Assembly (NCBI RefSeq): GCF_048403405.1
Contig: NZ_CP183129.1
Strand: one strand, 5' to 3'
Length of the DNA stretch: 64,000 bases
Source: Escherichia coli
GTDB taxonomy: Bacteria; Pseudomonadota; Gammaproteobacteria; Enterobacterales; Enterobacteriaceae
Part shown: positions 12,654 through 30,038 of the stretch, one piece after another
Layout: the number at the start of each line of letters is the position of its first letter
How positions within the stretch are numbered: the stretch's first letter is position 1
Position numbers and translations under genes: made by a program
Notes under the pieces: model-generated
Told to the model about the DNA's origin: nothing
The model's database searches: none
Seen by the model: only the letters and a program-made list of their open reading frames with translations

Positions 12654-15206
12654 TTATTTACCTAGCATGAACTGCGATGGTGGGATCAGAAAGTCGTTAC
12701 CCTGCTCACGCTCAACACGGCGCTGATAACGCTCAAGAGAGCCTGGGTCAAGGGCATCTTGTATCCTGTTCAATATTAAACCATTCATCGCCGTACGAAG
12801 CCAGAACACGTTGAGGAATGGCGTATTGTCAAGTGCCGTGCGATACCAGTCACCCAAATCTGCATCCCCTCTCGTGGTCTGCTGGAGCAGCGTGATAATG
12901 CTGTCAGCGTTCGATGCTGCCGGTCCCATTAGCGACGTAACCGGCCCGGCCCCCATGCGGTTGACCTCGCCAAACATGAAGTCACCCAAGATGCCAAGAC
13001 CGCCCCCCTGAGATGCGGCTGCGAGAAACGTCTTGGCATCTGCCGGGCGTGGTGTTTGCCCTTTCAGCATGAGTTTTGACTGCATGGAGATATAACCAAA
13101 CATAGTCGCCCAGACAAAGAGGTTTGCAGCACCAAGGAAAGCCCCCTTCCCGTTACGTAGCAGCGCATTCGTCAGCGATCCGGTTTTCGACTCACCAAGC
13201 CCAGCAGGAATATAACCACGCCCGAATACTTCGCGTCCTAGTACGTTCTGCATGAAGCTTGCAGTGAACGATTTGTATTGACCAGCGAATCGTATTGCTT
13301 CCCCAGCCACCGTTCCTGGCACCGTGCCCATCTTCATAAACGCCTGCGTGCGATCGCCAGGCTCTGACATGGCGATATTCAGGCGGTCAAGGATGTAGCC
13401 GCGCAACTGCCCTTCCAATTGATCGCGTGCGTCAGCGATAGCGCGCTGCGTTGGCTTGATCCCCTTACTCTCTACATAACCGGCAATCACTTCGTCAGGC
13501 ACGCCGCGGATGCCGCTGGTCGTCATGAACTTACGACCTTCGCTATCGGCCATGTCCATGTTGCGAAAAATTTCCCACTCACGTTCGCCAATACCGTGCA
13601 GATCCAGCACGCGTCGCAGGTCTTCCGGTAGCCGCGCATGAGGCTGGTCAGCATTCTTTGCAAGCCAGTTGGTTATCATCATGGCGTTGCTGTTGCGACC
13701 GCTCTCGGTCCAGAAGTTCATGAGGTTGTACTTAAAGAAAAGCTGCTGCGCGCGACCAAGTTTTCCATTCAGCGTGTCATCACCAGATATGCGCCGGATG
13801 ATTTCCTGCGTCATGGAGTCGGAATAAACTCCGATAGAGGAAAGGATCTCTTTCTGCTCCGCGCTGTTGTAACGCGTGAAGCGGCCTCTCATAGCACCAA
13901 GCAACGCCTGCATAAAATTCTGCCCTTGGTAGCGCATCTCGGTAGCGGCGATAGGCACGTCGTTAAACGATGAGATTACCGCGCCACCAAGCTGGCTCAT
14001 ACGCAACCAGCCGCGTACAGCCGCCGACGCATTGGCCCAGCCTACGCTGCCAGGAATATTTAGCGAGCCGTCAACCTGCGGCATTACGGTACGGTTAATG
14101 CGACGCACCTTCGTCATGTAGTCAGCCAACGCTGCCGGTCTTCCGGATTTGCTGATATCTTCAGCAATGGTGTCCGTCAGGTACTTAAACATGTTCTGTG
14201 GGTTAGTGCCCAGTACGCGCATCATGCCCGTTGTGCGGGCAGCGCTGTTTAAGCCACCAAACAGCGCCTCTCGCAGGCTGCCAGTGCCGAATTGCTGGTT
14301 GTACTCGTGCCACGAGATACCATCTTTGAAGTGCAAAATTCGCTCTTGGCTGGCGCGTTTAGCTGCGTTCGCCGATCCCTTAAAGCCATTCATCCAATCT
14401 GGCTTTTCAGATGTAAGATGCACGCCGGAAGCCAGCCCGTTATAAATGTTACGCATGAACTGCTCGCGGTCAGCCACGCCGTCAAAAGTGCGCTCATCAA
14501 GGCGCGGGAGAATAGCATTTCGCCATGCTTCATAACCTGCGGCGCGGATCTTCATGATGTCGTGTGACTGGCGCACTATATAGCCCGGCTCTTTGCGTAT
14601 CCATGCCCCGGCGCGGTTCTCATCAATGCGCGCAGTTTCCTGCCATTTCATGATGATTTGTGCAGCGCTTACGGATTGCTTTGTCATACCGTCAGTTGAC
14701 TGCCCGCGCCCTATGCGCCACATTGCATCGGCAATTTCCCTGTCATTGCTGCCGCTGGCGATGAATTGCACCAGCCCGGCACGGTCAAAATCGTAGTTGA
14801 TACCGGAATGATACTTGCCGTGCAGTTGCGCCACCTCCGAAGATACCGACCGGCGGGCGCCGGTACGCGCATCGTTGCGGCCAACCAGCATTGCTTCAAG
14901 CCCGATATCCGGGCGGTCTTTCCAGATAGTACGAAGCTCTCTAAGTCGTTGTGCGGCAATACGGGTGTTGATTGCCTTATTGCGAGCCTCAATCTGTTTT
15001 GCCAGCATATCGGCATTGCTCAGTTCTTCCGCTGCGCGCATCGCGGCCTCTTCCAGAGACAGCGCCTCATTGGTCGCCAGAATTCGCCTAGTGGTGTCGT
15101 TCATGTCACGCACCAGCGACTCCATCTCATCGGAAGAAAGCTCGCGACCAGCGGCAGCATTTACACTGCGCTCGCACTGCGTCAAAAATTCGTTTGCTGC
15201 CATCAC
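12654..15206 (-). CDS. large hypothetical protein (850 aa), third gene of a tightly packed giant-ORF block; possible phage internal-virion/ejection-type protein
   Basis: Long uninterrupted ORF, 4-nt overlap with upstream gene; no domain recognised by eye. Confidence 0.65.
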   Translation of the reverse strand: MMAANEFLTQCERSVNAAAGRELSSDEMESLVRDMNDTTRRILATNEALSLEEAAMRAAEELSNADMLAKQIEARNKAINTRIAAQRLRELRTIWKDRPDIGLEAMLVGRNDARTGARRSVSSEVAQLHGKYHSGINYDFDRAGLVQFIASGSNDREIADAMWRIGRGQSTDGMTKQSVSAAQIIMKWQETARIDENRAGAWIRKEPGYIVRQSHDIMKIRAAGYEAWRNAILPRLDERTFDGVADREQFMRNIYNGLASGVHLTSEKPDWMNGFKGSANAAKRASQERILHFKDGISWHEYNQQFGTGSLREALFGGLNSAARTTGMMRVLGTNPQNMFKYLTDTIAEDISKSGRPAALADYMTKVRRINRTVMPQVDGSLNIPGSVGWANASAAVRGWLRMSQLGGAVISSFNDVPIAATEMRYQGQNFMQALLGAMRGRFTRYNSAEQKEILSSIGVYSDSMTQEIIRRISGDDTLNGKLGRAQQLFFKYNLMNFWTESGRNSNAMMITNWLAKNADQPHARLPEDLRRVLDLHGIGEREWEIFRNMDMADSEGRKFMTTSGIRGVPDEVIAGYVESKGIKPTQRAIADARDQLEGQLRGYILDRLNIAMSEPGDRTQAFMKMGTVPGTVAGEAIRFAGQYKSFTASFMQNVLGREVFGRGYIPAGLGESKTGSLTNALLRNGKGAFLGAANLFVWATMFGYISMQSKLMLKGQTPRPADAKTFLAAASQGGGLGILGDFMFGEVNRMGAGPVTSLMGPAASNADSIITLLQQTTRGDADLGDWYRTALDNTPFLNVFWLRTAMNGLILNRIQDALDPGSLERYQRRVEREQGNDFLIPPSQFMLGK

Positions 15207-16900
15207 ATCCCCCGGTTAATCATACAGGCGGCAAATGCCCGGAAAGCGTTGCTCATGCTATTGTCGCTGGCGTCGGCACGAATATCATTGAGTTTCTGGC
15301 GCAACGTGGTCGCAAGATCAGGGTTATCGACAGCGATATCGTCAAGCAGGGCGTTACTCAGGTTGAGCTCGTTATCAAGGTCTGCAGCGGCAGCGGTAAT
15401 TTCATGATCTGCCTTTTGCGTTTCTTGATAAACCCGATCGGCTGTTTCGCTTGCTGGGCGAGCCGTTTCATCAACCTGCCGTGCCGGATTCTGTATGCGA
15501 TGGATGGCGCGTTCACGCAGTGCCGGTTTGTGCAGTTCATAGAAGGGCTCAACATCTGGGCTACGTCCTTCCATCATGTGTGCCAGCGCAGCGCGATACG
15601 CCTGCTGGTTCACGCTCCAGTCAGCATCCCTGATGGCGCTTGCGGCAGTGCGAACTGCGCCAGCGACCGGCGACATCTGCATGCCGTCCAGGATCTGCTG
15701 CGCACGCTCGGAAATGGTGACTTTCAGGTCGTCGGGGATCTCGCCGCGGGAAATCTGAGACTGGCGCCAGCGCGCCTGCTCTGCTGTCGCGTTCTGCTCC
15801 AGCGATGTGTTGATCTCCTGATTGCGTGCAGCGATGGCGTCTTTCTCGGCCTGAATCTCTTTCAGTGCCCTAGAGCGCGCATCCTTAAACTTCATCCGCT
15901 TCCCCTGATACTTTTTGGTGCGCTGTTGCAGCGTCGCATCAAGCGAGTCAGCATGACGTTGATTAGCCGCAAGCTCGGCACGCAGGTCGGCAACGTTACC
16001 GATCTGCCCGCTCTGTAACTCCTGCTGGCGCGCCATATAGTCAGGAACCACGTCGTCATAAGCCCGGCTGTATGCGTAGCTCTCCGCTTCACTGGAAATG
16101 GCCGCCGCCAGATCTGCGTTAGCGCCAACCTCAGGGATATTCACGCCCGCCGGAATGTTGTCAGGCGTTATCACCGGGGTTGGCTGCGCATCGCCAGAAA
16201 ACTCCGGGGACTCTCCCGTTGCAGCATCGGGAACGCGACGCGGTCGCACGATATCGGCGATAAGGCCGCCGCCGGCATGCATTAGACCGCCAGCCATCGT
16301 GTTAAAGAAAGTACTTTCCAACGCGTTGCTATAGGTGAAGTCGTCACCTTCCGCCGCCGCTGCCAGCCCGGTAAGCGGCACGGTCACCACCGCCTGCGCT
16401 GCCCCCATGCGTGCACCAGCAACAAATCGCTCGCCAAATCGGCCAAGCACAGAAGCTGCCTTTGCTTCTCCAGCGAACGGAACCAGCGCCAGCGCCACGT
16501 TACCAGGATCTGCCATTGAACCAGCTAGGCTGGCTGCGAAATTAAGCGGCGTGGCTACCCACCCGCTCGGTGCCGACATCGCAATCTGCTGGCGTGCCAG
16601 AGAATCTTTGCGTTCGGCAATAACATGATCGAGAAAAGCCTGCGTAACGCCAGAATCTGGCACGTTTATGCTCTTTACGCCGTACTGCTTCAGGAGCTCA
16701 TCTGCGTCCTGCTTACTGATAACTGTAGAGTTTGGGTCATTCGCCAGCGAGTCGGCCTGCGCAAAGCGGTAGCCGGACATGACCGGCCCCTCTTCAAATC
16801 CCTGCTTAAGGGAAGAAAGCAGCGATTCGCCAAGCCCTGCTGGCGCGTTGCCAATTGGCTGGTTAATGCCCTGTCCCGGATCATCTGTGTAAATTGGCAT
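15203..16900 (-). CDS. large Ala/Gly-rich hypothetical protein (565 aa), second gene of the giant-ORF block
   Basis: Long ORF with hydrophobic Ala/Gly-rich segments and a coiled-coil-like C-terminal half; packed against flanking genes. Confidence 0.65.
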   Translation of the reverse strand: MPIYTDDPGQGINQPIGNAPAGLGESLLSSLKQGFEEGPVMSGYRFAQADSLANDPNSTVISKQDADELLKQYGVKSINVPDSGVTQAFLDHVIAERKDSLARQQIAMSAPSGWVATPLNFAASLAGSMADPGNVALALVPFAGEAKAASVLGRFGERFVAGARMGAAQAVVTVPLTGLAAAAEGDDFTYSNALESTFFNTMAGGLMHAGGGLIADIVRPRRVPDAATGESPEFSGDAQPTPVITPDNIPAGVNIPEVGANADLAAAISSEAESYAYSRAYDDVVPDYMARQQELQSGQIGNVADLRAELAANQRHADSLDATLQQRTKKYQGKRMKFKDARSRALKEIQAEKDAIAARNQEINTSLEQNATAEQARWRQSQISRGEIPDDLKVTISERAQQILDGMQMSPVAGAVRTAASAIRDADWSVNQQAYRAALAHMMEGRSPDVEPFYELHKPALRERAIHRIQNPARQVDETARPASETADRVYQETQKADHEITAAAADLDNELNLSNALLDDIAVDNPDLATTLRQKLNDIRADASDNSMSNAFRAFAACMINRGM

Positions 16901-16901
16901 G

Positions 16902-19523
16902 TTATCGTCCTGATTGCTGGCCGTTCTGGAAAATGTTAATCAGGTTGTCGCGCTGACTTTCTGCGCTGTATTCCTTAGACTGTCCGGGAGTATATTTCAC
17001 CGGAGTATCAATGAACTTGGTAATGCTGTTCCATACTGATCGGTTGGTTGTTCCCAGTTTCGCCAGATCGTTGAACGGCACCGTAATCGGGTTGCCGTCG
17101 GCACCGTTGACGATCAGCCCGTTGAGCATCAGGGTAAGTCCTGTTTCGTCGCTGTTGGTAACCCACTGCGCATTATCACGAATGCGGGAGATACTCTGCT
17201 CACGGTTGACCTCATCAGGTAGCCTTGGGTCACCAATAAGCGGCATAATCTGATCTGCTGACAGGTTTTTCAGATACGCATTGGCACCATCGTTAACGTC
17301 ACGAATATCTATCCCTGCACGCTTAGGTAGCCGCCAAGTGCCATTGGTCTGATACTGCTCGCCGAGGATGTCCTGATACGCCTGTTTTGCTGCATCAGAC
17401 GCCGACATTCCGCGCTGCATGTTGATGTAAGTAAGTCGTTTTCCCTGCTCGTTGAAGTTATTCCACACGGCAGTGCCACCAGGCTGAACAACCATCGTGC
17501 CAGCAAAATCTTTCGATTGGTCATTCCATGACGAGTCGGCGCTATCCGCGTCGGTTTTCTCAAGACTGCCGCGTAAGTCAGCAGTTTTAACGCTACGGTT
17601 TTGCCAGAGCGCATTTGCCGCGCGCGGGTTCTCGGTAGCCATGACAACCTGCAACGCAGGATAAGCGCTCTTCTGAACCTGCTGCATCACCTGATCCGAG
17701 TATTTTCCGAACGACTGCGCCACCGACTGAATGGCCTTTACGCTAGATTCCTGCGTGTTGTCAATACGCTGCAGTACGTCGTTGACCATGGACTCCGGTA
17801 AAACTTTTTTGCTCATTATCCCCAGGCGGTCTTTTTCAGACTGTATGCGGGAAACTAGGTATTCACCAGATGAAGGGTCATTGAGGTACTGCTGGAATGC
17901 AGCCTGCACAACCGGAGAGTTTTGTTGCAGCCATGCCCCCGGATCCGCTTCCCGCGCCTTCAGTACCTGCCCAAGCTTGACCTTTGCCGATGCATAAAGC
18001 TCGGCTTTGTATTTAAAGTCAGGGTCGTTTTCCTGCGGTGCCATTGCCTGCACGGCGGCGGTACCCTGCTGGACGTTGCCCTGCATGATGGTCTGATAAA
18101 CAGGTTGTAGCGTCATTGCCTGCTGGTATTGCTGGAAGGTTTTTTCCATCTGCAGGCGCTCGGCAGGCGCTGCCTGAAGCGGCATAACGGCGGCCCATTC
18201 GTGCGCTGAAATAGGCGTCACCTGCTTACCGGCCTCAATTTTGGATAGGTCGTCCTGCATTCGACTCTGTAGCGCAACGCGACCGGCTGAAGCCTGCATG
18301 TCGTACATGCCAGCAACCTTGCTCATCATCTGCGACTTTTTGTCCGGACTCATGGCGTTCCAGAATGGCTGTGCGATGAGGTTTTCCATCGTCGCAGATC
18401 CAGGAATAGCTCCAGCACTGCCAGTTACTTTTGCCACATAATTGCGCGTCTCGTCGTATGGGATAGCTGCGGCAAACTGGGCGTTACTGACTTCGCCTGT
18501 GCGCGGATCGCCAATCTGTTTAATCCAGCCGTCAACCTTTCCTGGGCCAGCGTTATAGGCAGCTACTGCCAGAACCGGGTTATTGTCGTATTTCTTCATC
18601 TGCGCGCCGAAATAAGCTTGCCCCAAGCGGGCATTATAGCGCGGGTCATTCAACCATTTATCTCGGTCCCACGGCACACCAGCAAGGCGGGCAGCTTCGG
18701 GGCCAGTATCTTCCGTCACCTGCGCTACGCCAACAGCGCCTTTTGGCGACACCAGAGGTGTTCCGTCCTTTCCGTACTGATTTCCGCCACTCTCCTGCCA
18801 GATTATTGCAGAGAATAACTGCGCCTCACTCGGTGTATCGGTTACCTCAATCTTGCCGTTCGGCCCCATCATCTGTTGATACATCGGCACATACCACGCC
18901 TCCGCCGCACCGTTCGCGGCATTCTCGCGCCACGAAACCCAGTTCTGTTCGATCTCTTCCTGACTCTGGCCGTGTGCTTCGCCGTAAGCGATGATGCTAT
19001 GATATGCCTTCAATCCTGCCTGGTTTGCCATTGTCGGGTTACGGAACTGCATCGATAGGTTTTTTAGTGTCGCATCCTGCATATCCGCCTCATACTGGCG
19101 AACCTGTCCTATTTCGTACCTCCCAGCCTGCGTAGTGAACTGAATGCGCTGCTGCTGCGCCTGCTGCATGAAAGCATTACGAGCCTGTTCATCCGGCAGC
19201 GACATAGCCAGTTGTTCGACCTGAGCATCAAACTGCTGCGTATACTCCTGACCTTTTCCAATAGCATTTTTCCCTTTCAGGTTAAGCAAACCTGTTTCAG
19301 GGTTATTCAGCAGATCGCTGCCTGTCTGACTGAGTTTAAGGGATGCCTCCTGAACCAAGGCAATATTGGCACGCTGTTTTGCCTGACCCAGAACATCAAT
19401 TGCCTCTGCTCCTGCACGAACAAAAGCATCACTAATACCTGGCTGAGAAAACGTCTGCAAGCCTGCTGACTGAACTCCACGGCTCTCAACCTGACGTCCG
19501 GATACTGTTGGTACGACTGGCAT
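16902..19523 (-). CDS. large protein (873 aa) with internal soluble lytic transglycosylase (SLT) domain
   Basis: SLT catalytic motifs in the translation: ...IIWQESGGNQYG...VGVAQV...AYNAGPGKVDGW; remainder Gln-rich. Confidence 0.75.
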   Translation of the reverse strand: MPVVPTVSGRQVESRGVQSAGLQTFSQPGISDAFVRAGAEAIDVLGQAKQRANIALVQEASLKLSQTGSDLLNNPETGLLNLKGKNAIGKGQEYTQQFDAQVEQLAMSLPDEQARNAFMQQAQQQRIQFTTQAGRYEIGQVRQYEADMQDATLKNLSMQFRNPTMANQAGLKAYHSIIAYGEAHGQSQEEIEQNWVSWRENAANGAAEAWYVPMYQQMMGPNGKIEVTDTPSEAQLFSAIIWQESGGNQYGKDGTPLVSPKGAVGVAQVTEDTGPEAARLAGVPWDRDKWLNDPRYNARLGQAYFGAQMKKYDNNPVLAVAAYNAGPGKVDGWIKQIGDPRTGEVSNAQFAAAIPYDETRNYVAKVTGSAGAIPGSATMENLIAQPFWNAMSPDKKSQMMSKVAGMYDMQASAGRVALQSRMQDDLSKIEAGKQVTPISAHEWAAVMPLQAAPAERLQMEKTFQQYQQAMTLQPVYQTIMQGNVQQGTAAVQAMAPQENDPDFKYKAELYASAKVKLGQVLKAREADPGAWLQQNSPVVQAAFQQYLNDPSSGEYLVSRIQSEKDRLGIMSKKVLPESMVNDVLQRIDNTQESSVKAIQSVAQSFGKYSDQVMQQVQKSAYPALQVVMATENPRAANALWQNRSVKTADLRGSLEKTDADSADSSWNDQSKDFAGTMVVQPGGTAVWNNFNEQGKRLTYINMQRGMSASDAAKQAYQDILGEQYQTNGTWRLPKRAGIDIRDVNDGANAYLKNLSADQIMPLIGDPRLPDEVNREQSISRIRDNAQWVTNSDETGLTLMLNGLIVNGADGNPITVPFNDLAKLGTTNRSVWNSITKFIDTPVKYTPGQSKEYSAESQRDNLINIFQNGQQSGR

Positions 19524-19619
19524 TAGTAACCTCCTATTTTGAATCGGGAGTCAGAATTCATAAAACCTGAGTTAGATAACATTGGCGTCCCTCTGCTTTG
19601 ATGCTGTACCAGCGATTCA

Positions 19620-19826
19620 TTACTCACCCCCCGATGCAAAACCATTCTGATTAAGCCAGGCGTTTACGGCATGTCTGACAATCTGCGCCACGCCTGGTAA
19701 TGGCTGATCAGGGTGATTGTTCACATGGTCGATTCTGTACTGCTTAATGCGCATCACGGTCTGTGCATCCAGATGAACGGAACCACCTCTGACATCGCCT
19801 GTGTTCAGGTCGTTAATACAATTCAC
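19620..19826 (-). CDS. small hypothetical protein (68 aa)
   Basis: ORF directly upstream of the giant-ORF block on the same strand; no recognisable motif. Confidence 0.4.
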   Translation of the reverse strand: MNCINDLNTGDVRGGSVHLDAQTVMRIKQYRIDHVNNHPDQPLPGVAQIVRHAVNAWLNQNGFASGGE

Positions 19827-20192
19827 AGCAATTTCCTCTTACTGACTAAACTATGCACATTATTGATCTGAAAAAGTGGTAGATAAACATATTTCTATCA
19901 CAAAAACAGATTGATTGATTTCAGCCCCAAAAAAAGCCGGATTGCTCCGGCTCTGTGCTTACTTCTGGTAGTTACGCCATACTGATTTCCCGATCCCATC
20001 TATCCCCATTTCTTTTTCAGTGCGTTTAAGCGACCGTTTCAGGTCTTCTAAATTATCCGGTTGCTTCGGTGGCCTCTGTGCCTTCCTGGAACATTCCAGT
20101 CGTCGCATTGATATGTAATACCGTTCCTTATCAGTTTCCCAACTGCATTACTTCACCCCATCGCGCCGCCGCTCTTCGGTACAGGGTTTTAG

Positions 20193-20609
20193 TTAGCCTC
20201 CGACTCTTCCGTAGCGCTGTTCTGGTGGATTCACATAGCCCCTTTCTTGCAGGTATTCGCGAATATCAGACATCAGGAGACGGTTAACCGTGCTCTTGTC
20301 TTTTCTCCGGTAAAGGCGTCTGGTGATCATGAAGTAGTTAGCAATGACCTCCGGTATATCCCTGACGCTGATACATGCTGTATGCTGGTCAATAGCTTCA
20401 ATCATCTCTTCACGAGTTACAAAAGTCTGGCGTAAACGAGTGATCACACCATGTACATCTGAACGATCATTTATACGCTTATTTTGGCGCTTCGCGCTCT
20501 CGACTGTGACACTGACAATAATGTCAACTCTTTGTTTTTCCGCCATTTCATCCACAATGTGATCACCTGCACGGCGACCATGTGCGTGATCATTTCTTAC
20601 TATTTCCAT
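20193..20609 (-). CDS. hypothetical protein (138 aa)
   Basis: ORF overlapping the end of the FinO/ProQ-like gene by 20 nt on the same strand; basic, possibly nucleic-acid binding. Confidence 0.5.
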
Positions 20610-21087
20610 TCATCTCCTCCAGTAGTTTTCCTGCGTGCGTCTGTTGTAGTGGTGTTACCTCGCCGCACGGCTGGCCTTTCAGGTCGTAACGCGCGCCACC
20701 AGCTACCAGGGCGCGGTAATAGCGCGGAGTCTGCACATAACGCGCCAGCGTTGCGCGTAGTGTTCCCTGTCCGAGTGAAATACCTCTCGCGGCAATATCC
20801 TGTATCAGGTCGTCAAATATCCCCACCTTAAGCGGCTTAGGTGATTCCGGGCTGAATAATTCAGGCCATAGCTCAATAAGACGGTTAACGCGTCTGCGGT
20901 TTTTACGCTGCTGTTTGGTCATACGCCGCCGCGGTGTTGCTCCTGTGAGCTTCTGCTGTGTGTTCTGGTTATCTGGCATCACTTTATGCGCCGATGTGGT
21001 TTTATTCTGCTGCTGCGCCGCCTGTGCTGTTTTCTGCGGCGTGCCGTAAATGCCCTTCGGTTTTCTGTTTATGGTCAGCTTTGTCAT
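20590..21087 (-). CDS. FinO/ProQ-domain RNA-binding protein
   Basis: Central region ...[76 protein letters not shown]... resembles the ProQ/FinO N-terminal domain; basic N-terminal tail. Confidence 0.75.
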
Positions 21088-21123
21088 GCCTTCCCCTGTA
21101 ATTACTCTGTTCGCTGTTGTGAA

Positions 21124-21546
21124 TTAAAACGGTATCCCGTCCCCGTACGGATCGTCGTTACCCGCCTGTTGTTTTGCCCTGTTCAGTGCGTCAGTAGCCT
21201 GCCCTTGCTGGCCTTTTTTGCCGCCCGGTCGCGCCGTTCTCGCACTGATTACGCTGTCTGCGATAACCTGCCAGCCCTGCCGCGTTTCGCCGTTCTGGCC
21301 TGTCCACTGGCTTACCTGCATGTTACCCGCCACGCTCACCAGTTCGCCTTTGTGGTGTTTTGCCAGTGCGTCGGCCTGTCTGCCAAACGCCAGGACGGAT
21401 AACCACATCGTCGCCGTTCCGTCATCTGCCTGATTGCATGGAAGGGGGACCGCCATACTCGCCATCGCCATTTGTGTGCCCTTGCTGGTGGTCTTTAACT
21501 GCGGGTCAGCCACCAGCCGCCCGTAAGCTGATATTTGCGCCGTCAT
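21124..21546 (-). CDS. single-stranded DNA-binding protein (SSB-like OB fold)
   Basis: OB-fold pattern (AYGRLVADPQL...W...FGRQAD...KGELVSVAGNMQVSQW) and acidic C-terminal tail ending DGIPF, as in the SSB DIPF tip. Confidence 0.7.
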   Translation of the reverse strand: MTAQISAYGRLVADPQLKTTSKGTQMAMASMAVPLPCNQADDGTATMWLSVLAFGRQADALAKHHKGELVSVAGNMQVSQWTGQNGETRQGWQVIADSVISARTARPGGKKGQQGQATDALNRAKQQAGNDDPYGDGIPF

Positions 21547-21589
21547 GCTGTTTGTTCTCCGGTTTTAACGTGATAGTTACGCTTGTTTA

Positions 21590-21740
21590 CACTCTTACAG
21601 TGAAATTTTGCGGGTTACAATCGCACATTTGCGGGTTATAACTGCCGTTTTGCGGGTTACGTGCGGGTTATTGATTTCCTTTTTAATCATGCAGTTAATT
21701 AACTTATGCACAGGATAACCCGCATAACCCGCAACTTTTT
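21590..21740. repeat. iteron-type candidate origin of replication, directly 3' of the primase/helicase gene
   Basis: ttgcgggtta x4 (21603-21670), AT-rich spacer, then inverted taacccgca x2 (21715-21735). Confidence 0.6.
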
Positions 21741-21756
21741 ACCTCACACAGGGAAG

Positions 21757-23883
21757 TTAATCTTCTGCTTCAGGCTGGAACATCAGCACGTAAAAAATAT
21801 GCTGCTTCCCGCCAATCCTGCCGAGCGCCTTTTTCTTGTAACGGCGGTCGCCTCCCGCTTCCAGCATTCCGGCAGCACTCAACGCGCGGGCAAAGTGAGA
21901 CGGATTAAATCCCTGTGCTATCTCACCCTCAAACACATGCGGGAACGTGTAAAAACGGAACTCGTCATCTTCGTTTCTGATACTCCCCTTTCTGTATCCG
22001 GCAAGGTCTTTAATCGGTAAATCACGCTCGTCGCTGTTTGGATAGGGAAGGTATCGACTGAACCCGAACGACGACAAAAACGCCTCAGCCTGTTCAACCA
22101 TCTGTTTAAATTCCCTGTTGCCCGTGCCGAATTCCTTCACCCAGGCATTAAAGTTATGCTGAACTGCATCACGGCACGCCTGAACATCCCAGCCTGTAAC
22201 ATGACCGGAAAGCACAAGCGCGGCCTCCAGTACGGCGAATCTTTCCCCCACACGGTGAACCTGCTCGCCGTAGCTCTCCGGTATCAGGTTGCGCCACCGC
22301 TCGCGACATGCCCTTACCGCGTCCTTTGCCTCCTGCTGGTGACCTGCCAGCCATTTAACCCACTCACGACCTGCCGCCCCGTGATTTTCTGTCCAGGCAT
22401 CTTTTAACGCGTCTGCGTGCGCCTTTCCGGTGCTGTATTCGTGAAACTGCGATGCCTTTTCCATCGGCACGTTAAGCAGACGGACAAGCTGCCCCGCTTT
22501 AATTTTTATCCCTTCCGTTTTGAGGAATGTTTCAACGTCCATTTCTCCGGTGCTGATTGCCACCGTGCGCCAGTGTTTTATCTCCCTGTTGCCGCCGTCC
22601 TTCGCCCCCTGTAATTTCCCGGAACCGTTAAACAGCGTATAGGCTGACGTGGACACCTCCCGCGCGTTTCCGGCCTGGCCTATTTCATCCAGGGGTAACA
22701 GCCCGTCATTATGTGCTTCGGCCTCGTTGGCGATACCTAACGCCGTTCCGTACCAGGTCAGCCGTTGCGCGTCCGGCTCTCCCCATAAACTTGATGCAAT
22801 GTTCTGTGTGGTGGTTTTACCTGCTGATGATTGCTCAAAAAGATGAACCCCGAAGCCGTCAGCACCCACCAGCCCGATTAATGGTGCGGATAGCGATACC
22901 GCCACACCCAGCATCATGGACGGATTACCACCAGCCAGCCGTGCCACGGTATCGCGCCAGCCCTCCGCTGTTCCCGCCACGGAATAGCCATTAACAGCGG
23001 CAGTTTTTCCGGTAAACAGGATGGGTTTCTCTGATTCACCAATGACCGAACCATCCGGCATGATGTACGCACCAAAATGCCACCCCGTTGTTGTGCTTAA
23101 CTGCCATTCCTCATGGTTTCCGCTTAACTGCATCCAGTCAGCCAGGATAGCCCTGTATTTGCCGTTGGTCGTCACGTTAAGGCCGTGGTCTTTCAGCAAC
23201 CGCCAGCCGTCACGGTCACCAATGCCTCCGCACGGGACCGCCATTGTAATGACCTCATGGTTTGCTGGTTTTTTCCAGCGCATCACGCGGTAATGCTCTT
23301 TGCCGATTGTTCCTGTTCCCAGTAGTTCAAGCGGAGAACATAACCACGTCTCAGGCCGGATAATTTCGCCTGACTGCTTGTCCACTTTGGGCGTTACCCA
23401 GAAAACACCATCGACGCGACTTTCAACACGAGGCTTTAATTCGTCATCATAATTTCCGGTGAAATTTGTCTTCGCCGGAAGGTTGATCACCAGACTGTTA
23501 CCGCGTTCCGCATCATCCTTCAGTCCAGCCATGCGCGGTGTCCAGTCCTCCGGCTGCTGATCAACAAAGCTGCGGTAGCAACGCGCCTCCTTCACACCCG
23601 CCACTGCAAGCAGTGTCGCTATCTGTGTAAGGTGCTGCTCTGATATTTCACCAGCACGATAAACGCGCACGTAATAGCGCCCTTTGTCGATGATTTGCGT
23701 GTCTGCCAGACTCGCCAGTTGTTCCGGTCCAAGAATAACTGGATGTGTATCATCTGCCGCAATATGCTTTCCGGCCCATTCGCTCCACTCTTTCGCATGT
23801 GCCCAGGCATCACTACCCGCAAAGATAATCACCTCCGTCATTTTGTCTTTCGGCTGGTGCTTTAAATTCGGTGCGCGTTTCAT
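21757..23883 (-). CDS. primase/helicase-type replication initiator (P-loop NTPase, P4-alpha/DUF927-like)
   Basis: 708-aa ORF with Walker A-like FEQSSAGKTTT; followed by iteron ori as in satellite rep genes. Confidence 0.7.
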   Translation of the reverse strand: MKRAPNLKHQPKDKMTEVIIFAGSDAWAHAKEWSEWAGKHIAADDTHPVILGPEQLASLADTQIIDKGRYYVRVYRAGEISEQHLTQIATLLAVAGVKEARCYRSFVDQQPEDWTPRMAGLKDDAERGNSLVINLPAKTNFTGNYDDELKPRVESRVDGVFWVTPKVDKQSGEIIRPETWLCSPLELLGTGTIGKEHYRVMRWKKPANHEVITMAVPCGGIGDRDGWRLLKDHGLNVTTNGKYRAILADWMQLSGNHEEWQLSTTTGWHFGAYIMPDGSVIGESEKPILFTGKTAAVNGYSVAGTAEGWRDTVARLAGGNPSMMLGVAVSLSAPLIGLVGADGFGVHLFEQSSAGKTTTQNIASSLWGEPDAQRLTWYGTALGIANEAEAHNDGLLPLDEIGQAGNAREVSTSAYTLFNGSGKLQGAKDGGNREIKHWRTVAISTGEMDVETFLKTEGIKIKAGQLVRLLNVPMEKASQFHEYSTGKAHADALKDAWTENHGAAGREWVKWLAGHQQEAKDAVRACRERWRNLIPESYGEQVHRVGERFAVLEAALVLSGHVTGWDVQACRDAVQHNFNAWVKEFGTGNREFKQMVEQAEAFLSSFGFSRYLPYPNSDERDLPIKDLAGYRKGSIRNEDDEFRFYTFPHVFEGEIAQGFNPSHFARALSAAGMLEAGGDRRYKKKALGRIGGKQHIFYVLMFQPEAED

Positions 23884-24182
23884 TTCTTGCCCCTGAATGC
23901 GTTAATCATGTTCTTTATTACCTGAATATTTGCCCGTGCTTTCTCTTTACTGGTGGGCTTACTGCGTGGTACTGCACATACCAGTGAAAAATCACGCCGG
24001 AACTGATGAACGGGCATCACACAGTCATAGTCGTACCCTGCGCGGCGGTATGTAATGTGCCGTTCATACACGGAATTAATAACCACGCTGTCACCATATT
24101 TATCCCGGAAAATATCCCCGATCCTGATTTTCGGGTGAGTCTGTCCGCTGGCATTTAAGCCAGTAAATTTAATCTTCTTCAT
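23880..24182 (-). CDS. hypothetical protein (100 aa)
   Basis: ORF overlapping primase/helicase start by 4 nt. Confidence 0.5.
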   Translation of the reverse strand: MKKIKFTGLNASGQTHPKIRIGDIFRDKYGDSVVINSVYERHITYRRAGYDYDCVMPVHQFRRDFSLVCAVPRSKPTSKEKARANIQVIKNMINAFRGKK

Positions 24183-24184
24183 GT

Positions 24185-24442
24185 TTATTTCCCGGTGTGA
24201 GGTTCTTCTTTATATTTATGGGCTAACAAATCTGGTAATTGCCTGTATTTATCCTCGGCAATATATTCAGAATAATCGACAGCACTGTTCAGTATATCTA
24301 ACGCCGTTTCATGCTCCAGATTCGAAACTATAAGGAACGTTGCTACTTTTAGCATATTCGCGATATGCAAAAGAGCATCAATTTCATTTTTTGGCGCTTC
24401 ACTGAATTTTTGCTCCAGAAGAATAAATCGTTCATCACGCAT
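24185..24442 (-). CDS. hypothetical protein (85 aa)
   Basis: ORF in the same operon orientation, 2 bp from downstream gene. Confidence 0.5.
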   Translation of the reverse strand: MRDERFILLEQKFSEAPKNEIDALLHIANMLKVATFLIVSNLEHETALDILNSAVDYSEYIAEDKYRQLPDLLAHKYKEEPHTGK

Positions 24443-24638
24443 AGTATTCCCCCTGACGGATGCGGGCAGTAAATACCATCACGCAGCCAGCCGGGGATTG
24501 CTGACGGGCTTCCTGTTCGCTGGCGGCCTCGATGTGTATTACGCGTGGTTGTGCGGTGCTCAGGGCGATAAAACGCCAGATGTATTTATTCAGGTTGTGC
24601 GAGTCCCGCCCTTGCGGGTGTGTGGTATGATTTAACAT
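24435..24638 (-). CDS. small protein (67 aa); possibly an Icd-like cell-division-inhibitor type protein
   Basis: C-terminal 67 codons of the 345-aa ORF have normal composition and overlap the next gene by 8 nt; the rest of that ORF looks like antisense artefact. Confidence 0.35.
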   Translation of the reverse strand: MLNHTTHPQGRDSHNLNKYIWRFIALSTAQPRVIHIEAASEQEARQQSPAGCVMVFTARIRQGEYYA

Positions 24639-24699
24639 AGCTACCTCGATACGCTTTCTATCGTTGGTGGTTAGACGCCCTGCATGTGTTGCGAGCACT

Positions 24700-24795
24700 G
24701 CGGGGCGTTGCTTAATTTGAGCAATGCAACCCAAACTGTGCGCACAGATTAAAATCATGTGTGCGCACATGTCAATACTTAACTTCTCACTTTTT
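24700..24795. promoter_or_regulatory. candidate operator/promoter region with TGTGCGCACA-type palindromes
   Basis: ctgtgcgcacag, tgtgtgcgcacatg and tgtgtgcgcccatc within ~90 bp, upstream of the + strand small gene at 24844. Confidence 0.4.
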
Positions 24796-24843
24796 TTGCT
24801 GTATTGTGTGCGCCCATCAAATCCATTTAAGTGAGGTGTACCA

Positions 24844-25041
24844 ATGTCTAGCGGAAACACAAACAACAAATCAGCAAAGAAAAATATTCGATTCCCGCAC
24901 GAGCTTATAGATGGGATTGATGCCAGTGTTGAACAAGAAAAATTAACTAATCCTAGTGCTAATTTTTCCGCATGGGTCTTAGATGCCTGTGGACGCAAAT
25001 TAAAATATGAACAGCGCCGGAAGGCCAAAGAGCAGGAGTAA
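24844..25041 (+). CDS. small DNA-binding protein, possibly ribbon-helix-helix
   Basis: 65-aa ORF with RHH-like segment IRFPHELIDGIDASV; C-terminus ...RRKAKEQE. Confidence 0.45.
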   Translation: MSSGNTNNKSAKKNIRFPHELIDGIDASVEQEKLTNPSANFSAWVLDACGRKLKYEQRRKAKEQE

Positions 25042-25098
25042 CCATCACCAGCGCCGTGGTGCGGTGAACTGTGGCGCACAGGGTTACAGGTATCTACG

Positions 25099-25296
25099 AT
25101 GACTGACAAATCATTAAAGAAATTATCCTCATCCAGGAAAAAACAACGCAAAAATGCGGTAAGCGAACAAGAACAGGAAAGATTTGCGCCATGTGCGTTT
25201 GTCCTTGAGAAGTTCTTAAAAGAGTACAGGCGCACAAAAATGGGATCGCATACCTGGAAAACATCGCAGTATGGCGATGCTAAAGAGCAGGAATAG
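25099..25296 (+). CDS. small basic protein (65 aa), shares C-terminal motif with upstream gene
   Basis: C-terminus ...YGDAKEQE repeats the AKEQE ending of the 24844 gene. Confidence 0.4.
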   Translation: MTDKSLKKLSSSRKKQRKNAVSEQEQERFAPCAFVLEKFLKEYRRTKMGSHTWKTSQYGDAKEQE

Positions 25297-25464
25297 CCCA
25301 CCAGCAAGCCAGCACACTGATCACATTGCCCACCAGCCGCAAATCTGGCATTGTTGGCGATGCGTTTGATTTCCTTTGTTCCCACTGGCGACCTATCCCG
25401 GTCGCCTTTGTTTTGCCTGTTATCCAGCAACGGGGCGCTTTTTCTTTCTGTAACGTTCGGATCG

Positions 25465-26208
25465 TTACGCATGGCTGCTCACCTCCATGCGGCGGGCTAA
25501 CCAGCGTTGCGAAAGACGAATTAATTCAGCTTTCCGCTGGTGGTAGTCCTGGCCTAACTCAATCAGCGTGATATTGCTCTGCTCAAGGTAAGAAAGGTGC
25601 TCAAGCTGCAGCGTGCTCATGTGGTCGCGTGGTTCGCCTGTGATGCCGTTCGCCTGCGCCCACTGTTTTGCAGTCATGCCACCCAGCACGATACGCGCCA
25701 GCATATTGGCTTCCGTGGTGTAGTGGTGCTGGAGCGTGTTTTTACCCAGTTCAGCGCGGTACGCCTCCAGCGCGGCACACATCGGCTTAAAGTAGCTGGC
25801 AACGGTGATACGGGCTTTCAGTTCACGGCGTAACGCTGCGGAACGCACTGGCGCTACTTTGTGTAGCTCCTCCTCGCATTTGATGAAGTACTGACGAATA
25901 GCGCGGCCCTGTTCGGTACGCTCGACCATCGCAAGTTCTTTCGCCATGTTGATGGTACTCAGGTAGTCGTGCTCTACACGTTGGCGAGATTTTGCGCTCA
26001 CCGGATTGGGGGAGGTCAAATTTTCTACAAACTCAAAATCCACGCCATTTTTAAATCCGTACTGATCAATACGCCCTTTAATCCATGTAGTGAAATCACG
26101 CTTCACACCAAGCGCCTTATGTAACGCTCTGGCGCTGACAATGGCTGTTTCATGTCCGCCAATAATGCCAGGTGATACCGGAATAAGTGCGGCGAAATCC
26201 TTAAGCAT
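25465..26208 (-). CDS. phage antirepressor-like protein (KilAC/Ant-type)
   Basis: 247-aa ORF whose C-terminal half resembles KilA-C antirepressor domains; position between Rha-like and replication genes. Confidence 0.6.
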   Translation of the reverse strand: MLKDFAALIPVSPGIIGGHETAIVSARALHKALGVKRDFTTWIKGRIDQYGFKNGVDFEFVENLTSPNPVSAKSRQRVEHDYLSTINMAKELAMVERTEQGRAIRQYFIKCEEELHKVAPVRSAALRRELKARITVASYFKPMCAALEAYRAELGKNTLQHHYTTEANMLARIVLGGMTAKQWAQANGITGEPRDHMSTLQLEHLSYLEQSNITLIELGQDYHQRKAELIRLSQRWLARRMEVSSHA

Positions 26209-26899
26209 GATTTACCCCCAGATACGGCTCAGATGTCATCAGGCTGGCGAATGTCTCCATGCGTCGGGCAACCTCCCGCACTGCTTCGGTAGGTGTCATG
26301 CCGTTCTGTATCGCCTCCTCAAATGCGGCCTGTTCGATTTTCTGCATGACAATCAGCAAGCCTAACTGCTGCTCGCTGGCTGTGCCTCGTTCGCCAGTTA
26401 CCAGACCTGTAACACGGTTCTCTGCGCGTGCCAGATTGATGTAATGGTGACGTTCTGCGCCCAGTGCTTTAAGCCCGTCACGGCTTTCGTGATAGCCTGG
26501 CAGATATTCACGGCGTACAGGCTCGGTAGCGCGATGTTTTGCGAATGCCTTCGTAACATCCAGCTTGAAGCGGTTCATGCGTTCATCATCACGACCGCGC
26601 ACAATGCGACACATGTAATCAAACTGATCGCTATTCAGGAGGGCAAACTTATGTTCACGCTCCCCGTTTTGACGGGTTTTTAATCGCTCCGTTTGAAACG
26701 GAAGGATGCCCAGTTCACGCAATCCGGTTTTGTGCTTCTGAATGAGCGAATAAAGGTTTTTGTGCTTTATGCCAATACGCTCAGCAAATAAGCGGGAATC
26801 AATGCGCGACTCCGCTTTGTGGCGAACCAGAATATCGCTCATGCTGGTTTCAGGCCGAACGAAGCCCTGCCCCTGTACGGGCGTTTTTCGCAGTTTCAT
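26201..26899 (-). CDS. phage regulatory protein, Rha-like
   Basis: N-terminal segment ...RIDSRLFAERIGIKHKNLYSLIQKH... resembles Rha/ORF6N regulators. Confidence 0.55.
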   Translation of the reverse strand: MKLRKTPVQGQGFVRPETSMSDILVRHKAESRIDSRLFAERIGIKHKNLYSLIQKHKTGLRELGILPFQTERLKTRQNGEREHKFALLNSDQFDYMCRIVRGRDDERMNRFKLDVTKAFAKHRATEPVRREYLPGYHESRDGLKALGAERHHYINLARAENRVTGLVTGERGTASEQQLGLLIVMQKIEQAAFEEAIQNGMTPTEAVREVARRMETFASLMTSEPYLGVNHA

Positions 26900-26973
26900 A
26901 AAAACACCTGCTATTAAATTAAGTTACTTTTGTTTGCTGGTGGGGTTGAACGTCATCCCCCGTAGTCATTTAA

Positions 26974-27192
26974 TCAGGCTGATGTGTTTCGGCGTTCTGC
27001 CAGCCAGTTATTAATTTCCACCGCATCAAACGCAGTCACGTTATCTGTTAGCTTCACTGGGCGTGGAAGAGTGCCATTTTTAACCCATCTATCAATAGTA
27101 GGCAGTGAAACACCTAGCAATTCCGGCATGCGAAAGCGACGGATGTATCCAGTTGTTGGGATAGCTGATGATGCTGGCTTGTGTGCTGTCAT
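26974..27192 (-). CDS. alpA: AlpA-family transcriptional regulator (excisionase-like)
   Basis: 72-aa product with HTH ...MPELLGVSLPTIDRWVKNGTLPRPVKL...EINNWL; next to integrase as in P4-like islands. Confidence 0.75.
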   Translation of the reverse strand: MTAHKPASSAIPTTGYIRRFRMPELLGVSLPTIDRWVKNGTLPRPVKLTDNVTAFDAVEINNWLAERRNTSA

Positions 27193-27663
27193 ATCTCTAG
27201 TAACCTCTCTGATAGCTCATGAAGTTACTTAAAGTTTAGTGGTTGCCCATACAGTATTTCTATTAAGACTAGAATCTATTGAAAGAAATTATAAATCTAT
27301 TGAAAAAATACCGATCCACTGAAAGATTGCAAATGCAAGTGGGATAATTATTTTCTTTATTTTCAATTAGTTACCAGTTTAAAAAATCATTGTTTTATCA
27401 AAGAGTTATATCTTTCATCGTCATTCATCATGTTTTTACATTTCCTTTTATCTTTTATTATTCAATTGGTTGAGTCGGTTTATAATGGCTCATGATGGCT
27501 TAAAATGGCTAATGATAGCTGGCGTATCTTTTAGAGATGGGGTGATTACAGATGAACTAAGCCGAACAGATATAGCAATGGCTAGGCATAGAATTATCTA
27601 TGCTGGTGGAGATGGGTAAACAGGTAATGCCCCGCCATTGCTTTGGAGGGGCGTGAAAAGTGA

Positions 27664-28314
27664 TTAGTCGAGATCGTGGACAGCTAATAAAGCCCGTGAG
27701 ATTTTTTCTAGGAATGTGGCTTTTGCTATTCCTTTATGGGATATCCCTTCATCCTTGATTAAGGTTTCTATGTCACGGTATATAGCTGTGCGATTAGGTT
27801 TCCCATTTTGGATGTAGGAAGATGAGCCTGATTTTTTTATCAGCAGATGTACTATCAACCCCATCATTTTCATTGTCCCGTTTTCCTCATCCTGCTTTCT
27901 ATGCTGCCCACGTCCGCTGCGGTTGGTTTCTTTGATGTAGTTTACTAACTGGAGTCCTCCAAGGTTTCGGGCTTTTTCTTCCCAGCCCTTGGTGCCACGC
28001 AAATCATCAATCGCTTCTGATATTTTCTGAACAATTATTTCTGGTGTATTTGTGTCAATAAATGGGTAAGAAGCTAAGAAAATATCAAGGGCATGGCAAG
28101 GCTCGTCTTTACTAGTTTTTTCACCTCTGTACACCTTGATAGCTCTGGCAAGATGAGTTCTGACAAAATCGACATATTCGAAATTTTCCTCAGGCACATC
28201 GCTAATGCGCATAGATGGGTTTAGGCCAGCCAAGGCCACAGCCATTTCATGAGGGGTAATCGATACAGATGAACAAAGCCGTTCGATTGGCGATTTTCTC
28301 AAGATGTTGTTCAC
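27664..28314 (-). CDS. hypothetical protein (216 aa) in the int-alpA variable slot
   Basis: ORF overlapping int stop by 4 nt; AT-rich; no recognisable motif. Confidence 0.6.
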   Translation of the reverse strand: MNNILRKSPIERLCSSVSITPHEMAVALAGLNPSMRISDVPEENFEYVDFVRTHLARAIKVYRGEKTSKDEPCHALDIFLASYPFIDTNTPEIIVQKISEAIDDLRGTKGWEEKARNLGGLQLVNYIKETNRSGRGQHRKQDEENGTMKMMGLIVHLLIKKSGSSSYIQNGKPNRTAIYRDIETLIKDEGISHKGIAKATFLEKISRALLAVHDLD

Positions 28315-29579
28315 ATTTGCCTCCGGGCTTTATCGAATGGCGTTACGTTGTAGTCTTTCCCGCTTTCCAGTGCCACCAGCAGATCAGCCCACTGTGCCAG
28401 CGCAGCTTTACGCTCATCAAAATACTGATGGCGGTTATAAATCCCCTCCACACCCTTAATGCGATGATTGAGGCATCGTTCCGCTACGACAGGATCAACA
28501 CCCAATGCTGCTAAATGAGTACGTGCGGTACGCCGGAAGTCGTGAATCGTGAAATTAGGCACATCCGGCATTTCGGCGCGAACCTTAGCCAGTGCTACGG
28601 GTAAAGTGCTTTCCTGAATATGTGGGATCATTCTGTTTTGCATCTTCCTGGCTGGAAGCACCCATGCGCTATTACATGAAAAGGTGTGTAGCTCTCTCAA
28701 CCATTCAACGGCAGGAGAAGGTAGAGGTATATCAATAGGGTCTCCGTTTTTGCTGCGTTCTTCCGGCAAATGCCATACCGCACCATCTAAATCAAACTCT
28801 TCCCATCGTGCGGCGCATAACTCCATCTTACGAACGCATAGTGCCAGCAATAGCTTAAATGTCAGTTCGTTCTGGCGGCTGAATCCTTTTGCGGTGCGCA
28901 TAGCCTCGAATAGCCTGATAAGCTCATCGCGAGTTAGCCAACGGTCGCGGGAAACCTCTTTACCACCAGCATCAGATACTTCAAACGCTGAACAAGGGTT
29001 TATCTCCAGAGCGTGGCGTTTTATCCCATAGTCAAAGATACGGCGTGTCCAGCGTAATACATCTGTTGCTATCGTTGGTGCTCCTCGGTCAACGATACCT
29101 TTCAACATGTCGTCAATGTGGCGTGGCTTAACGTCCTCTACCTTCATATGCCCAATGCAGGGGTTAATATCCTTATCAATTCTCCGGCGAAGGATATCGG
29201 GATGTTTCCATCTCGGAAGTATCTGTCGCTCGAAGTATTCGGCGGCCAGATCTGAAACGCGCATGGCGTTTTTCTCAGCCTCCATTTTTGCCAGTGCTTC
29301 AGCTTTTCGTTCCTGTTTTTCTGCTGCTACGTCATAGCCAAGAGCAACTCTGGCTGACAGCTCTTTTGCTATTTCTCTGGCTTTTGATAGTGACAGTTCG
29401 GAGTAAGAGCCGATAACCATAGCCCGCTGTTTTCCTGCGAGCTTATATCGGAATCGCCAGAACGGGACTGTGTAGTTTTTGGGGTAGCAAATATAAAGGC
29501 CGTTGCCGTCTGCCTTGCCATCAAATCTGTCTCCCGCCTTTATCCATGCGCGGATCTGCATATCTGTGAGTTTTGGCAT
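28311..29579 (-). CDS. int: tyrosine recombinase/integrase, P4-type
   Basis: C-terminal catalytic region ...HDFRRTARTHL...NHRIKGVEGIYNRHQYFDERK...; start taken at MPKLTDMQIRAWIKAG (ORF track extends to 29663). Confidence 0.9.
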   Translation of the reverse strand: MPKLTDMQIRAWIKAGDRFDGKADGNGLYICYPKNYTVPFWRFRYKLAGKQRAMVIGSYSELSLSKAREIAKELSARVALGYDVAAEKQERKAEALAKMEAEKNAMRVSDLAAEYFERQILPRWKHPDILRRRIDKDINPCIGHMKVEDVKPRHIDDMLKGIVDRGAPTIATDVLRWTRRIFDYGIKRHALEINPCSAFEVSDAGGKEVSRDRWLTRDELIRLFEAMRTAKGFSRQNELTFKLLLALCVRKMELCAARWEEFDLDGAVWHLPEERSKNGDPIDIPLPSPAVEWLRELHTFSCNSAWVLPARKMQNRMIPHIQESTLPVALAKVRAEMPDVPNFTIHDFRRTARTHLAALGVDPVVAERCLNHRIKGVEGIYNRHQYFDERKAALAQWADLLVALESGKDYNVTPFDKARRQM

Positions 29580-29635
29580 TGCGAATACCTGAATATCGAA
29601 TATGGGTGTGTACATAAAGCAATGTACATGAAAGT

Positions 29636-29660
29636 CATTATGTACACCTCTATGTACACG
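29636..29660. repeat. 25-bp repeat with TGTACA(C/T) motifs (right copy), upstream of int
   Basis: Four TGTACA(C/T) motifs between 29608 and 29660; 22/25 match to 10823-10847. Confidence 0.5.
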
Positions 29661-29704
29661 CATATTGTGCGCTTTGTTGCGTCGTTATGATAGCTCATGA
29701 TAAC

Positions 29705-29732
29705 AAAAAAGCCCGACATTTCGCGGGCTTTA
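29705..29732. terminator. GC-stem hairpin with flanking T-runs, possibly a bidirectional terminator
   Basis: aaaaaagcccgacatttcgcgggcttta followed by tggttttttg. Confidence 0.45.
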
Positions 29733-30038
29733 TGGTTTTTTGCTGCTTGGTGATTTTTGCTGATAGCTTATTCGATATTCTGAACATGAACCCGAATCTG
29801 CATCAAGGGTGAAGCGTGATTTATCTGAAGTCGAGTTCGAGTCAACAATGAAACGTAAGCGTTTTATGTAGAACGCCTGTGCGGTGAACTCAGGTTCCGG
29901 GGAAATAGTGTCCATCATTTTAATGGACACTATCATGGGAAATGGCTCTGTCACATCAACAACTACAGTTGCTGACCAGCCGGATGGATGATTTTTTCGC
30001 AACCAGAAGACGTTGCCTCCGATCCGGCTTACAACAAG

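Follow-up and report, generated by a model that had tools for sequence, protein, structure and literature searches.

A probable split, two-module iteron origin in a phage-inducible chromosomal island of Escherichia coli

The window analysed here, a stretch of 64 kb of Escherichia coli DNA, harbors an element that is, judged by its gene content and order, an E. coli phage-inducible chromosomal island (PICI) of 19 kb, and positions 21609-21733 are probably the first module (M1, or site B) of its Rep-dependent, bipartite replication origin. The origin is of a known kind in a variant split, bipartite arrangement: M1 adjoins the rep gene, and a second, mirror-image module (M2, or site A) is located about 10.2 kb away, adjoining a cos-like site. 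The initial annotation had placed repeats, an AT-rich spacer and an inverted pair directly after the rep stop codon at 21590-21740, and direct reading of the sequence bears out both the elements and the coordinates. It had also recognized the arrangement of a PICI-type origin, in agreement with the published layout of SaPI and Gram-negative PICI origins, with the ori of EcCICFT073, and with the co-variation of the iterons and the C-terminal domain of Rep. Binding by Rep, melting, helicase loading, replication, and a cooperation between M1 and M2 are what we infer, as is the autonomous replication after excision that had been proposed.

M1 consists of six copies of the 9-bp iteron TGCGGGTTA, arranged as a tandem pair, a 45-bp spacer, and four opposed copies. 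According to sequence reading and a 9-mer search, the tandem set (21716..21733, minus strand) is formed by two head-to-tail iterons on the strand of rep, which appear as two tandem inverted copies (TAACCCGCA) at 21716-21724 and 21725-21733. The spaced set (21609..21670, plus strand) opposes the tandem set and comprises four copies, three of them starting at 21609, 21630, and 21651 with a spacing of 21 bp, followed by a copy starting at 21662; in the orientation of rep this set reads TAACCCGCA. Four direct repeats had been described as TTGCGGGTTA, which holds for three copies that are preceded by TT, whereas the fourth reads GTGCGGGTTA. The AT-rich spacer between both sets (21671..21715) is the presumed melting region. 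With 25% GC in a 40-nt window it has the lowest GC content of the region, and few duplex segments anywhere in the window are less stable; the 20-mer with the lowest stability in M1 is located within it (-20.0 kcal/mol, compared to a window mean of -26.7). The tandem pair starts 23 nt past the stop codon of the minus-strand rep ORF, and the start of ssb (21124..21546, minus strand; assigned by gene annotation and relatives), located directly downstream of M1, is found 62 nt beyond the last iteron. Where the identical sequence has been annotated by RefSeq in other E. coli, no feature is called in the rep-ssb spacer, and there are no Rfam matches between positions 10000 and 30500 at E-values up to 0.1. 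In the entire window, exact copies of TGCGGGTTA occur 13 times, compared to 0.55 expected from 100 dinucleotide-preserving shuffles (sd 0.74, with at most 3 copies in any shuffle); two clusters of at most 155 bp each account for 11 of the 13 copies.

The second of these clusters, M2, consists of five exact copies at 11229-11382, was identified by a pattern search of the window, and is not part of the initial annotation. Its spaced set (11332..11382, minus strand) holds three iterons at 21-bp spacing, followed by an AT-rich spacer of about 75 bp (11256..11331, from sequence reading), whose least stable 20-mer has -19.7 kcal/mol, and by a tandem set (11229..11255, plus strand) that mirrors the tandem set of M1 and consists of two exact iterons and a degenerate third copy (ACCGGGTTA). 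Read in the direction of rep, M1 presents a tandem pair, the spacer, and copies at offsets 0, +11, +32, and +53; M2 presents three copies 21 bp apart, the spacer, and a tandem pair. Because of these layouts, site A corresponds to site B rotated by 180 degrees. The tandem set of M2 is followed by a T-run and a (TA)n tail (11204..11228) that reads TGTTTTGTATATATAC in rep orientation and is kept in different genera and with different iteron types. The tail motif TGTTTTGTATATATATAC is always found after the tandem set of the second module, for example in loci L090 (12478-12500), L009, L021, L062, and others. No duplex in either site is less stable (-19.6 kcal/mol); the motif is kept in the window although no gene comes after it, and it could serve as an unwinding element or a host-factor site. 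The spacers of M1 and M2 are unrelated and the tail is found in M2 only, observations that favour two non-equivalent modules. M2 clearly appears to be under selection and read by the same Rep as M1. Adjacent to M2 is a cos-like packaging site (11115..11196); its 82 bp share 85.9% identity with the cos-site annotated in phage phiP27, and the segment is conserved in the sister island L003. The resemblance to the cos of this Stx phage hints at a phiP27-like helper phage.

The gene rep (21757..23883, minus strand) encodes a 708-aa initiator/helicase (Pfam DUF927) that is assigned to the SaPI Rep/Cch family by sequence and fold matches. The sequence matches SaPIbov1 Rep (8tch, 1.7e-14) and the SCCmec helicase Cch (5dgk), and it weakly matches the NCBIfam Cch model. 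The AlphaFold model of full-length Rep is poor (pLDDT 48.6), yet it retrieves Cch and SaPI Rep. The last ~106 codons (~21760-22077) encode a variable, predicted winged-helix C-terminal domain that tracks the iteron sequence; compared to the PDB by sequence, this domain alone returns noise only, and its kinship to SaPI Rep/Cch was obtained by fold search. Both characteristics of a PICI/SaPI initiator, a self-loading Rep-type helicase and a C-terminal winged helix, are found in this protein. The gene had been labeled a primase/helicase. Its identity as a helicase and initiator has support, but no recognizable primase domain of the Toprim, Prim-Pol, or zinc-ribbon type emerged from Pfam, the PDB, or the model: the N-terminal 210 aa have no PDB match, Pfam reports DUF927 as the only domain, and a generic alpha/beta domain at residues 20-125 of the model (pLDDT 48.6) has no primase match. 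The label 'DNA primase' derives solely from the name of a PHROG family. Residues 1-160 share 42% identity with the Pri-Rep of EcCICFT073, while the remainder, with the helicase and DNA-binding parts, is unrelated to that protein; Rep appears to be a mosaic protein.

The association between Rep and its iterons was assessed in 80 loci, sampled from one genome per species across the Enterobacterales, and additionally in E. coli contigs with chosen Rep variants. In nearly every locus with enough sequence (~70 loci), an iteron cluster starts ~21-30 nt past the rep stop codon, and the iteron sequence tracks the C-terminal ~45 aa of Rep, not the helicase core (~70 loci, with co-variation in 69 loci). 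The C-terminal motif of the window, GDRRYKKKALGRIGGKQ, is paired with iteron TGCGGGTTA. Likewise, motif GRHKKKALRRMGGKQ is paired with iteron GTGGGTTA, motif GRGYQRKSPRIDGRQ with TGAACCAAC (more than 30 loci from many genera), motif GRGYQRKTPRIDGRQ with TGAACCGAC, motif GRGYQGRVREDGRQ with TGAGACAAC, and motif GEGWQIRTPRLKH with TGGGACAA; additional Rep variants beyond these six conform to this scheme. Among 2,346 locus pairs, a number to be read descriptively since the loci are related, no pair with more than 75% identity of the C-terminal domain differs in its iteron. Conversely, 11 of these pairs have helicase cores that are more than 90% identical and iterons that differ, with an identity of the C-terminal domains of 33-73%. 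Because of this co-variation, a recognition of the iterons by the C-terminal domain of Rep is supported.

The decisive cases are recombinants, which indicate that the C-terminal domain and the iterons move as one cassette. The rep genes of the window and of L003 are 96.6% identical over nt 1-1806, followed by ~510 nt that cannot be aligned (the last ~106 codons and M1), and sequence identity resumes at 88.8% from just before ssb. The distal module near cos is likewise switched to the new iteron in islands of the L003 type, while its cos-side flank is clearly conserved. Both the 69-locus co-variation and the natural cassette swap indicate iterons that are cognate to the Rep allele. As an observation on a finer scale, locus L041 differs from the TGAACCAAC group (e.g. 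L012 and L021) by a Ser-to-Thr exchange in the wing motif, from GRGYQRKSPRIDGRQ to ...KTPRIDGRQ, and this exchange goes along with a single A-to-G change in the iteron, from TGAACCAAC to TGAACCGAC. The Ser/Thr and A/G pair is a candidate residue-base contact. Taken as a natural specificity table, the data set ~15 variants of the Rep winged-helix "wing" against 9-bp iterons, with single-residue/single-base pairs and a ready-made domain swap; such a table could guide work on satellite incompatibility and the engineering of orthogonal replicons. Locus L026 (Yersinia pekkanenii) harbors three iteron clusters of the same type within ~6 kb, at about -4.6 kb, 0, and +1.2 kb from the rep stop codon, which points to tandem or duplicated islands, or else to an artefact of the assembly.

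The relation between both modules is apparent from relatives in which they are contiguous. The E. coli PICIs L090, L092, and L093 encode the same C-terminal domain as the window and use TGCGGGTTA; here M1 and M2 lie side by side in a spacer of ~370 bp between rep and orfX. This spacer includes CTGTTTTGTATATATATACGAAAAATTG, which trails site A in the window. Since M1 and M2 are contiguous in sister PICIs with the same C-terminal domain, the site after rep in the window is one half of a split composite origin. Sister islands with a contiguous origin harbor ssb after M2, and a capsid-forming PICI at roxA in O157:H7 has the same contiguous M1-M2 arrangement. Within the sampled family, 33 loci have the second module next to the first, and ~10 loci have it 0.6-10.5 kb away, invariably as a mirror image; in ~12 loci it was not found within the available flank (10 kb), and 7 loci, mostly Xenorhabdus, have a single symmetric module instead of two. 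In view of the latter two groups, the second module may not be universally required. A third module or an extra distal cluster was found in none of L090, L092, L093, L094, EcCICFT073, and the window. The junction of cos and M2 as found in the window is present at a query coverage of at least 80% in 159 of 5,426 complete E. coli genomes, and the split state is therefore common and stable. We note two contigs of E. coli (L094 and L095, both encoding P0027) in which a capsid-forming PICI with this Rep family is inserted into the late region of a prophage of the Stx type, where the lysis genes and the gene for the small terminase subunit lie upstream of it. The setting resembles helper-embedded PICIs that have been published (PMC10111431).

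The architecture can be compared to several known systems. The origins of SaPIs and Gram-negative PICIs are located immediately 3' of rep and consist of two opposed iteron sets around an AT-rich region (PMC6092414, PMC9371898). Binding of Rep to its iterons and replication of rep-ori plasmids have been shown for EcCICFT073 and for SaPI alleles (PMC6092414, PMC9371898), and the ori of EcCICFT073 has been validated by experiment (PMC6092414). The window matches this layout, with a position 23 nt after the stop codon of rep and with two and four opposed copies that flank 45 bp of AT-rich sequence at 25% GC; all features of PICI/SaPI Rep-iteron origins and of Gram-negative PICIs that are accessible from sequence were found. 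As read from its sequence, EcCICFT073 shares the gene order int, AlpA-like, Icd-like, DUF4222, rep, ori, ssb, PerC, late genes, and cos. Its ori, a few nt after the rep stop codon, resembles that of the window in that an AT-rich spacer separates a tandem 9-bp pair from opposed copies, and since its spacer begins and ends with inverted tandem pairs it is a double module too. EcCICFT073 differs in the helicase and DNA-binding body of the initiator and in its iteron (GTCTACC), and all its iterons are located in one 288-bp spacer with no distal copies, whereas the second module of the window is 10.2 kb off at cos. The islands SaPI1, SaPI5, and SaPIbov1 have in common with the window a self-loading helicase whose C-terminal winged helix reads short iterons (PMC9371898; PDB 8tch), an ori just downstream of rep with opposed iterons around an AT-rich centre, and allele-matched specificity (PMC9371898). 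The kinship of SaPI Rep and the window Rep is seen by sequence and fold, although the N-terminal domain differs. SaPIs use iterons of 5-6 nt in one module, whereas the window, from a Gram-negative host, uses 9-bp units in two mirror-image modules. The Cch protein of SCCmec (PDB 5dgk) has a homologous helicase core and C-terminal domain fold, but its element type and host differ from those of the window PICI.

A separate comparison concerns P4, like the window element an integrative satellite-type element of E. coli. In P4, both ori and crr are required and the alpha protein mediates looping. As read from the annotated P4 record (NC_001609) and from the window, both elements harbor two clusters of the same repeat that are kilobases apart, one of them directly after the initiator gene (alpha in P4), and the clusters of the window (sites A and B, 10.2 kb apart) are built from the same 9-mer. 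The crr unit also resembles one window module, with opposed copies, an AT-rich spacer, and a tandem pair; crr consists of two direct repeats of 120 bp, whereas the window modules are inverted. A homology of Rep to P4 alpha was considered and rejected, as similarity is undetectable (BLASTP best E-value 0.11). Because the initiators are unrelated, the window origin is not a member of the P4 ori/crr family.

On the basis of these similarities, Rep, as a member of the SaPI Rep/Cch family, would act as a hexameric helicase that loads itself and reads the 9-bp TGCGGGTTA via its C-terminal winged-helix domain. Bound to the two opposed iteron sets, it would distort and melt the 45-bp AT-rich spacer, where the helicase would load, and the host replisome would then copy the excised circle and provide the DNA for cos packaging by a helper phage. 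The origin would be bipartite: M2 would be bound by the same Rep and would probably cooperate with M1, either by looping as for ori and crr of P4, or as a second loading site (e.g. one per fork direction). As M1 is only one of two modules, cloning of the segment 21.5-21.8 kb alone may under-report origin activity.

We tentatively consider a stronger version, in which a long-range two-part origin arose independently of P4, the cos-side module with its conserved and easily unwound tail being the start site or an obligatory partner, with looping by Rep over 8.5-10 kb. If so, replication initiation would be physically linked to the packaging site, and the C-terminal domain of Rep would have to co-evolve with two unlinked DNA sites. 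In a limited literature collection, the papers that mention both PICIs and iterons (PMC6092414 among them) describe the rep-proximal origin only, and neither a displaced second module nor a co-variation of such a module was found described there. The composite origin is evidently splittable, with one half that looks functional and matches in specificity up to 10 kb away beside cos, and the split makes it testable whether self-loading helicases need two mirror-image modules and can act at a distance.

Several alternatives have to be weighed against a bipartite origin. M1 could be a self-sufficient origin, with M2 being either an independent second origin or a site for copy-number control by titration or handcuffing. 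Each module has the full SaPI-type layout of opposed sets around an AT-rich spacer, and some relatives show one module in the sequence at hand. However, adjacency and displacement are mutually exclusive in the islands checked, such that the count stays at two; the modules are not duplicates, given their unrelated spacers and the tail of M2; and M2 is kept intact and switches its specificity together with Rep at a distance. We regard a self-sufficient M1 as possible but rather improbable.

A reversal of roles, as in P4, is unlikely, and slightly more so. In such a scenario replication would start at M2, and M1 would be a crr-like cis enhancer that recruits or concentrates Rep. In the P4 record, the site directly after the stop codon of alpha is crr; the actual ori, which contains the same repeat, is found at a distance of 4.7 kb. 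As the rep-proximal cluster of P4 is crr, a rep-proximal position alone does not identify the start site. The tail that is conserved across genera and iteron types, with the least stable duplex, is likewise a property of M2 only. Against this reversal, M1 has the full structure of two sets and an AT-rich spacer, P4 alpha and the window Rep are not detectably similar in sequence, and the SaPI ori is a single, sufficient module right after rep (PMC9371898).

The iterons could also function mainly as transcriptional operators, by which Rep regulates read-through into ssb or, in sister islands, into an operon of orfX, ssb, and late genes. M1 does lie between rep and ssb, and in sister islands the tail of M2, which includes a TATATA stretch, precedes the next start codon by 25-40 nt. 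The (TA)n sequence, however, is not a canonical -10 hexamer, as the conserved T at position 6 is absent, and the tail of the window is retained with no gene to follow. Neither a sigma-70-like promoter nor a terminator was found on the coding (minus) strand of the rep-ssb spacer, and this architecture has been proven to act as an origin in EcCICFT073 and SaPIs, so that a mainly regulatory role is very improbable. That the repeats are due to chance, or are neutral simple-sequence repeats with no function, is suggested by nothing beyond the short length of the unit and has a negligible probability, as it is refuted by the shuffle statistics (none of the 100 shuffles reached 13 copies, against 0.55 expected) and by a position and architecture that are kept in many genera with a sequence that co-varies with the C-terminal domain of Rep.

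The proposed bipartite origin belongs to an island whose setting, already proposed in the initial annotation, is that of a PICI of the E. coli type with respect to gene content and order. The island spans 19,023 bp (10757..29779), with nearly all genes on the minus strand, as delimited by an empty-site comparison to E. coli strain 4621: in this strain, which lacks the island, window position 10756 joins 29780 directly, with a 3-bp overlap. Island genes comprise the integrase gene int (28311-29663, minus strand, from gene annotation), an AlpA-like regulator (72 aa, phrog_66), Rha, AntA/B, a Bro-type gene, Icd-like, DUF4222, rep, ssb, ProQ/FinO, a frameshifted PerC, and four virion internal or structural proteins, in addition to cos. 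The size of 19.0 kb, which falls within the 10-20 kb of Gram-negative PICIs, int, the alpA-type regulator, pri-rep, and the nearly uniform gene direction are as expected for this class, with four virion genes only in place of a complete structural and lysis set, and a matching attachment site and helper-type cos are found in the form of the dinD-yicC copies and the phiP27-like cos. The former are copies of the island, 99.9% identical, located between dinD and yicC in other E. coli; this locus is among the PICI attachment sites listed by Fillol-Salom et al. 2018 (PMC6092414). The copy in the window occupies a secondary site at the 3' end of a gene for a leucine-rich-repeat (LRR) protein, between cvrA and dadX, and its junctions (10740-10770 and 29765-29800) have only a 3-bp (ATT) overlap. 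This location suggests a recent move of the island to a secondary attachment site, truncating the LRR gene, and the occurrence of 99.9%-identical copies at two chromosomal sites can be read as an indirect hint of helper-dependent transfer. A search for long direct repeats at the island ends returned only uninformative matches of 12-14 bp, and the published 12-bp att core is statistically indistinguishable from background in the window. A tRNA gene as integration target was rejected, as no tRNA gene is found anywhere in the 64-kb window.

Some further observations concern the island and its flanks. The cargo between M1 and M2 (12091-19523, minus strand) consists of the four phage virion genes, which encode a protein of 873 aa with a lytic transglycosylase domain (phrog_1044), a protein of 565 aa (phrog_3003), an 850-aa virion structural protein (phrog_684), and a protein of 186 aa; in sister islands, other cargo is found at this position. 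The 12-bp motif TTATGTACAC(C/G) occurs in tandem at 10825-10848 near the left end and again at 29637-29648 just upstream of int, and these motifs may be arm-type binding sites of the integrase. A segment of 71 bp inside the left end (10916-10986) has 83% identity to part of rlfB/rapB of phages P1/P7, annotated as a replication protein. Outside the island, the flanking LRR-protein gene contains a 12-nt periodic repeat with 11 overlapping copies at 9725-9907.
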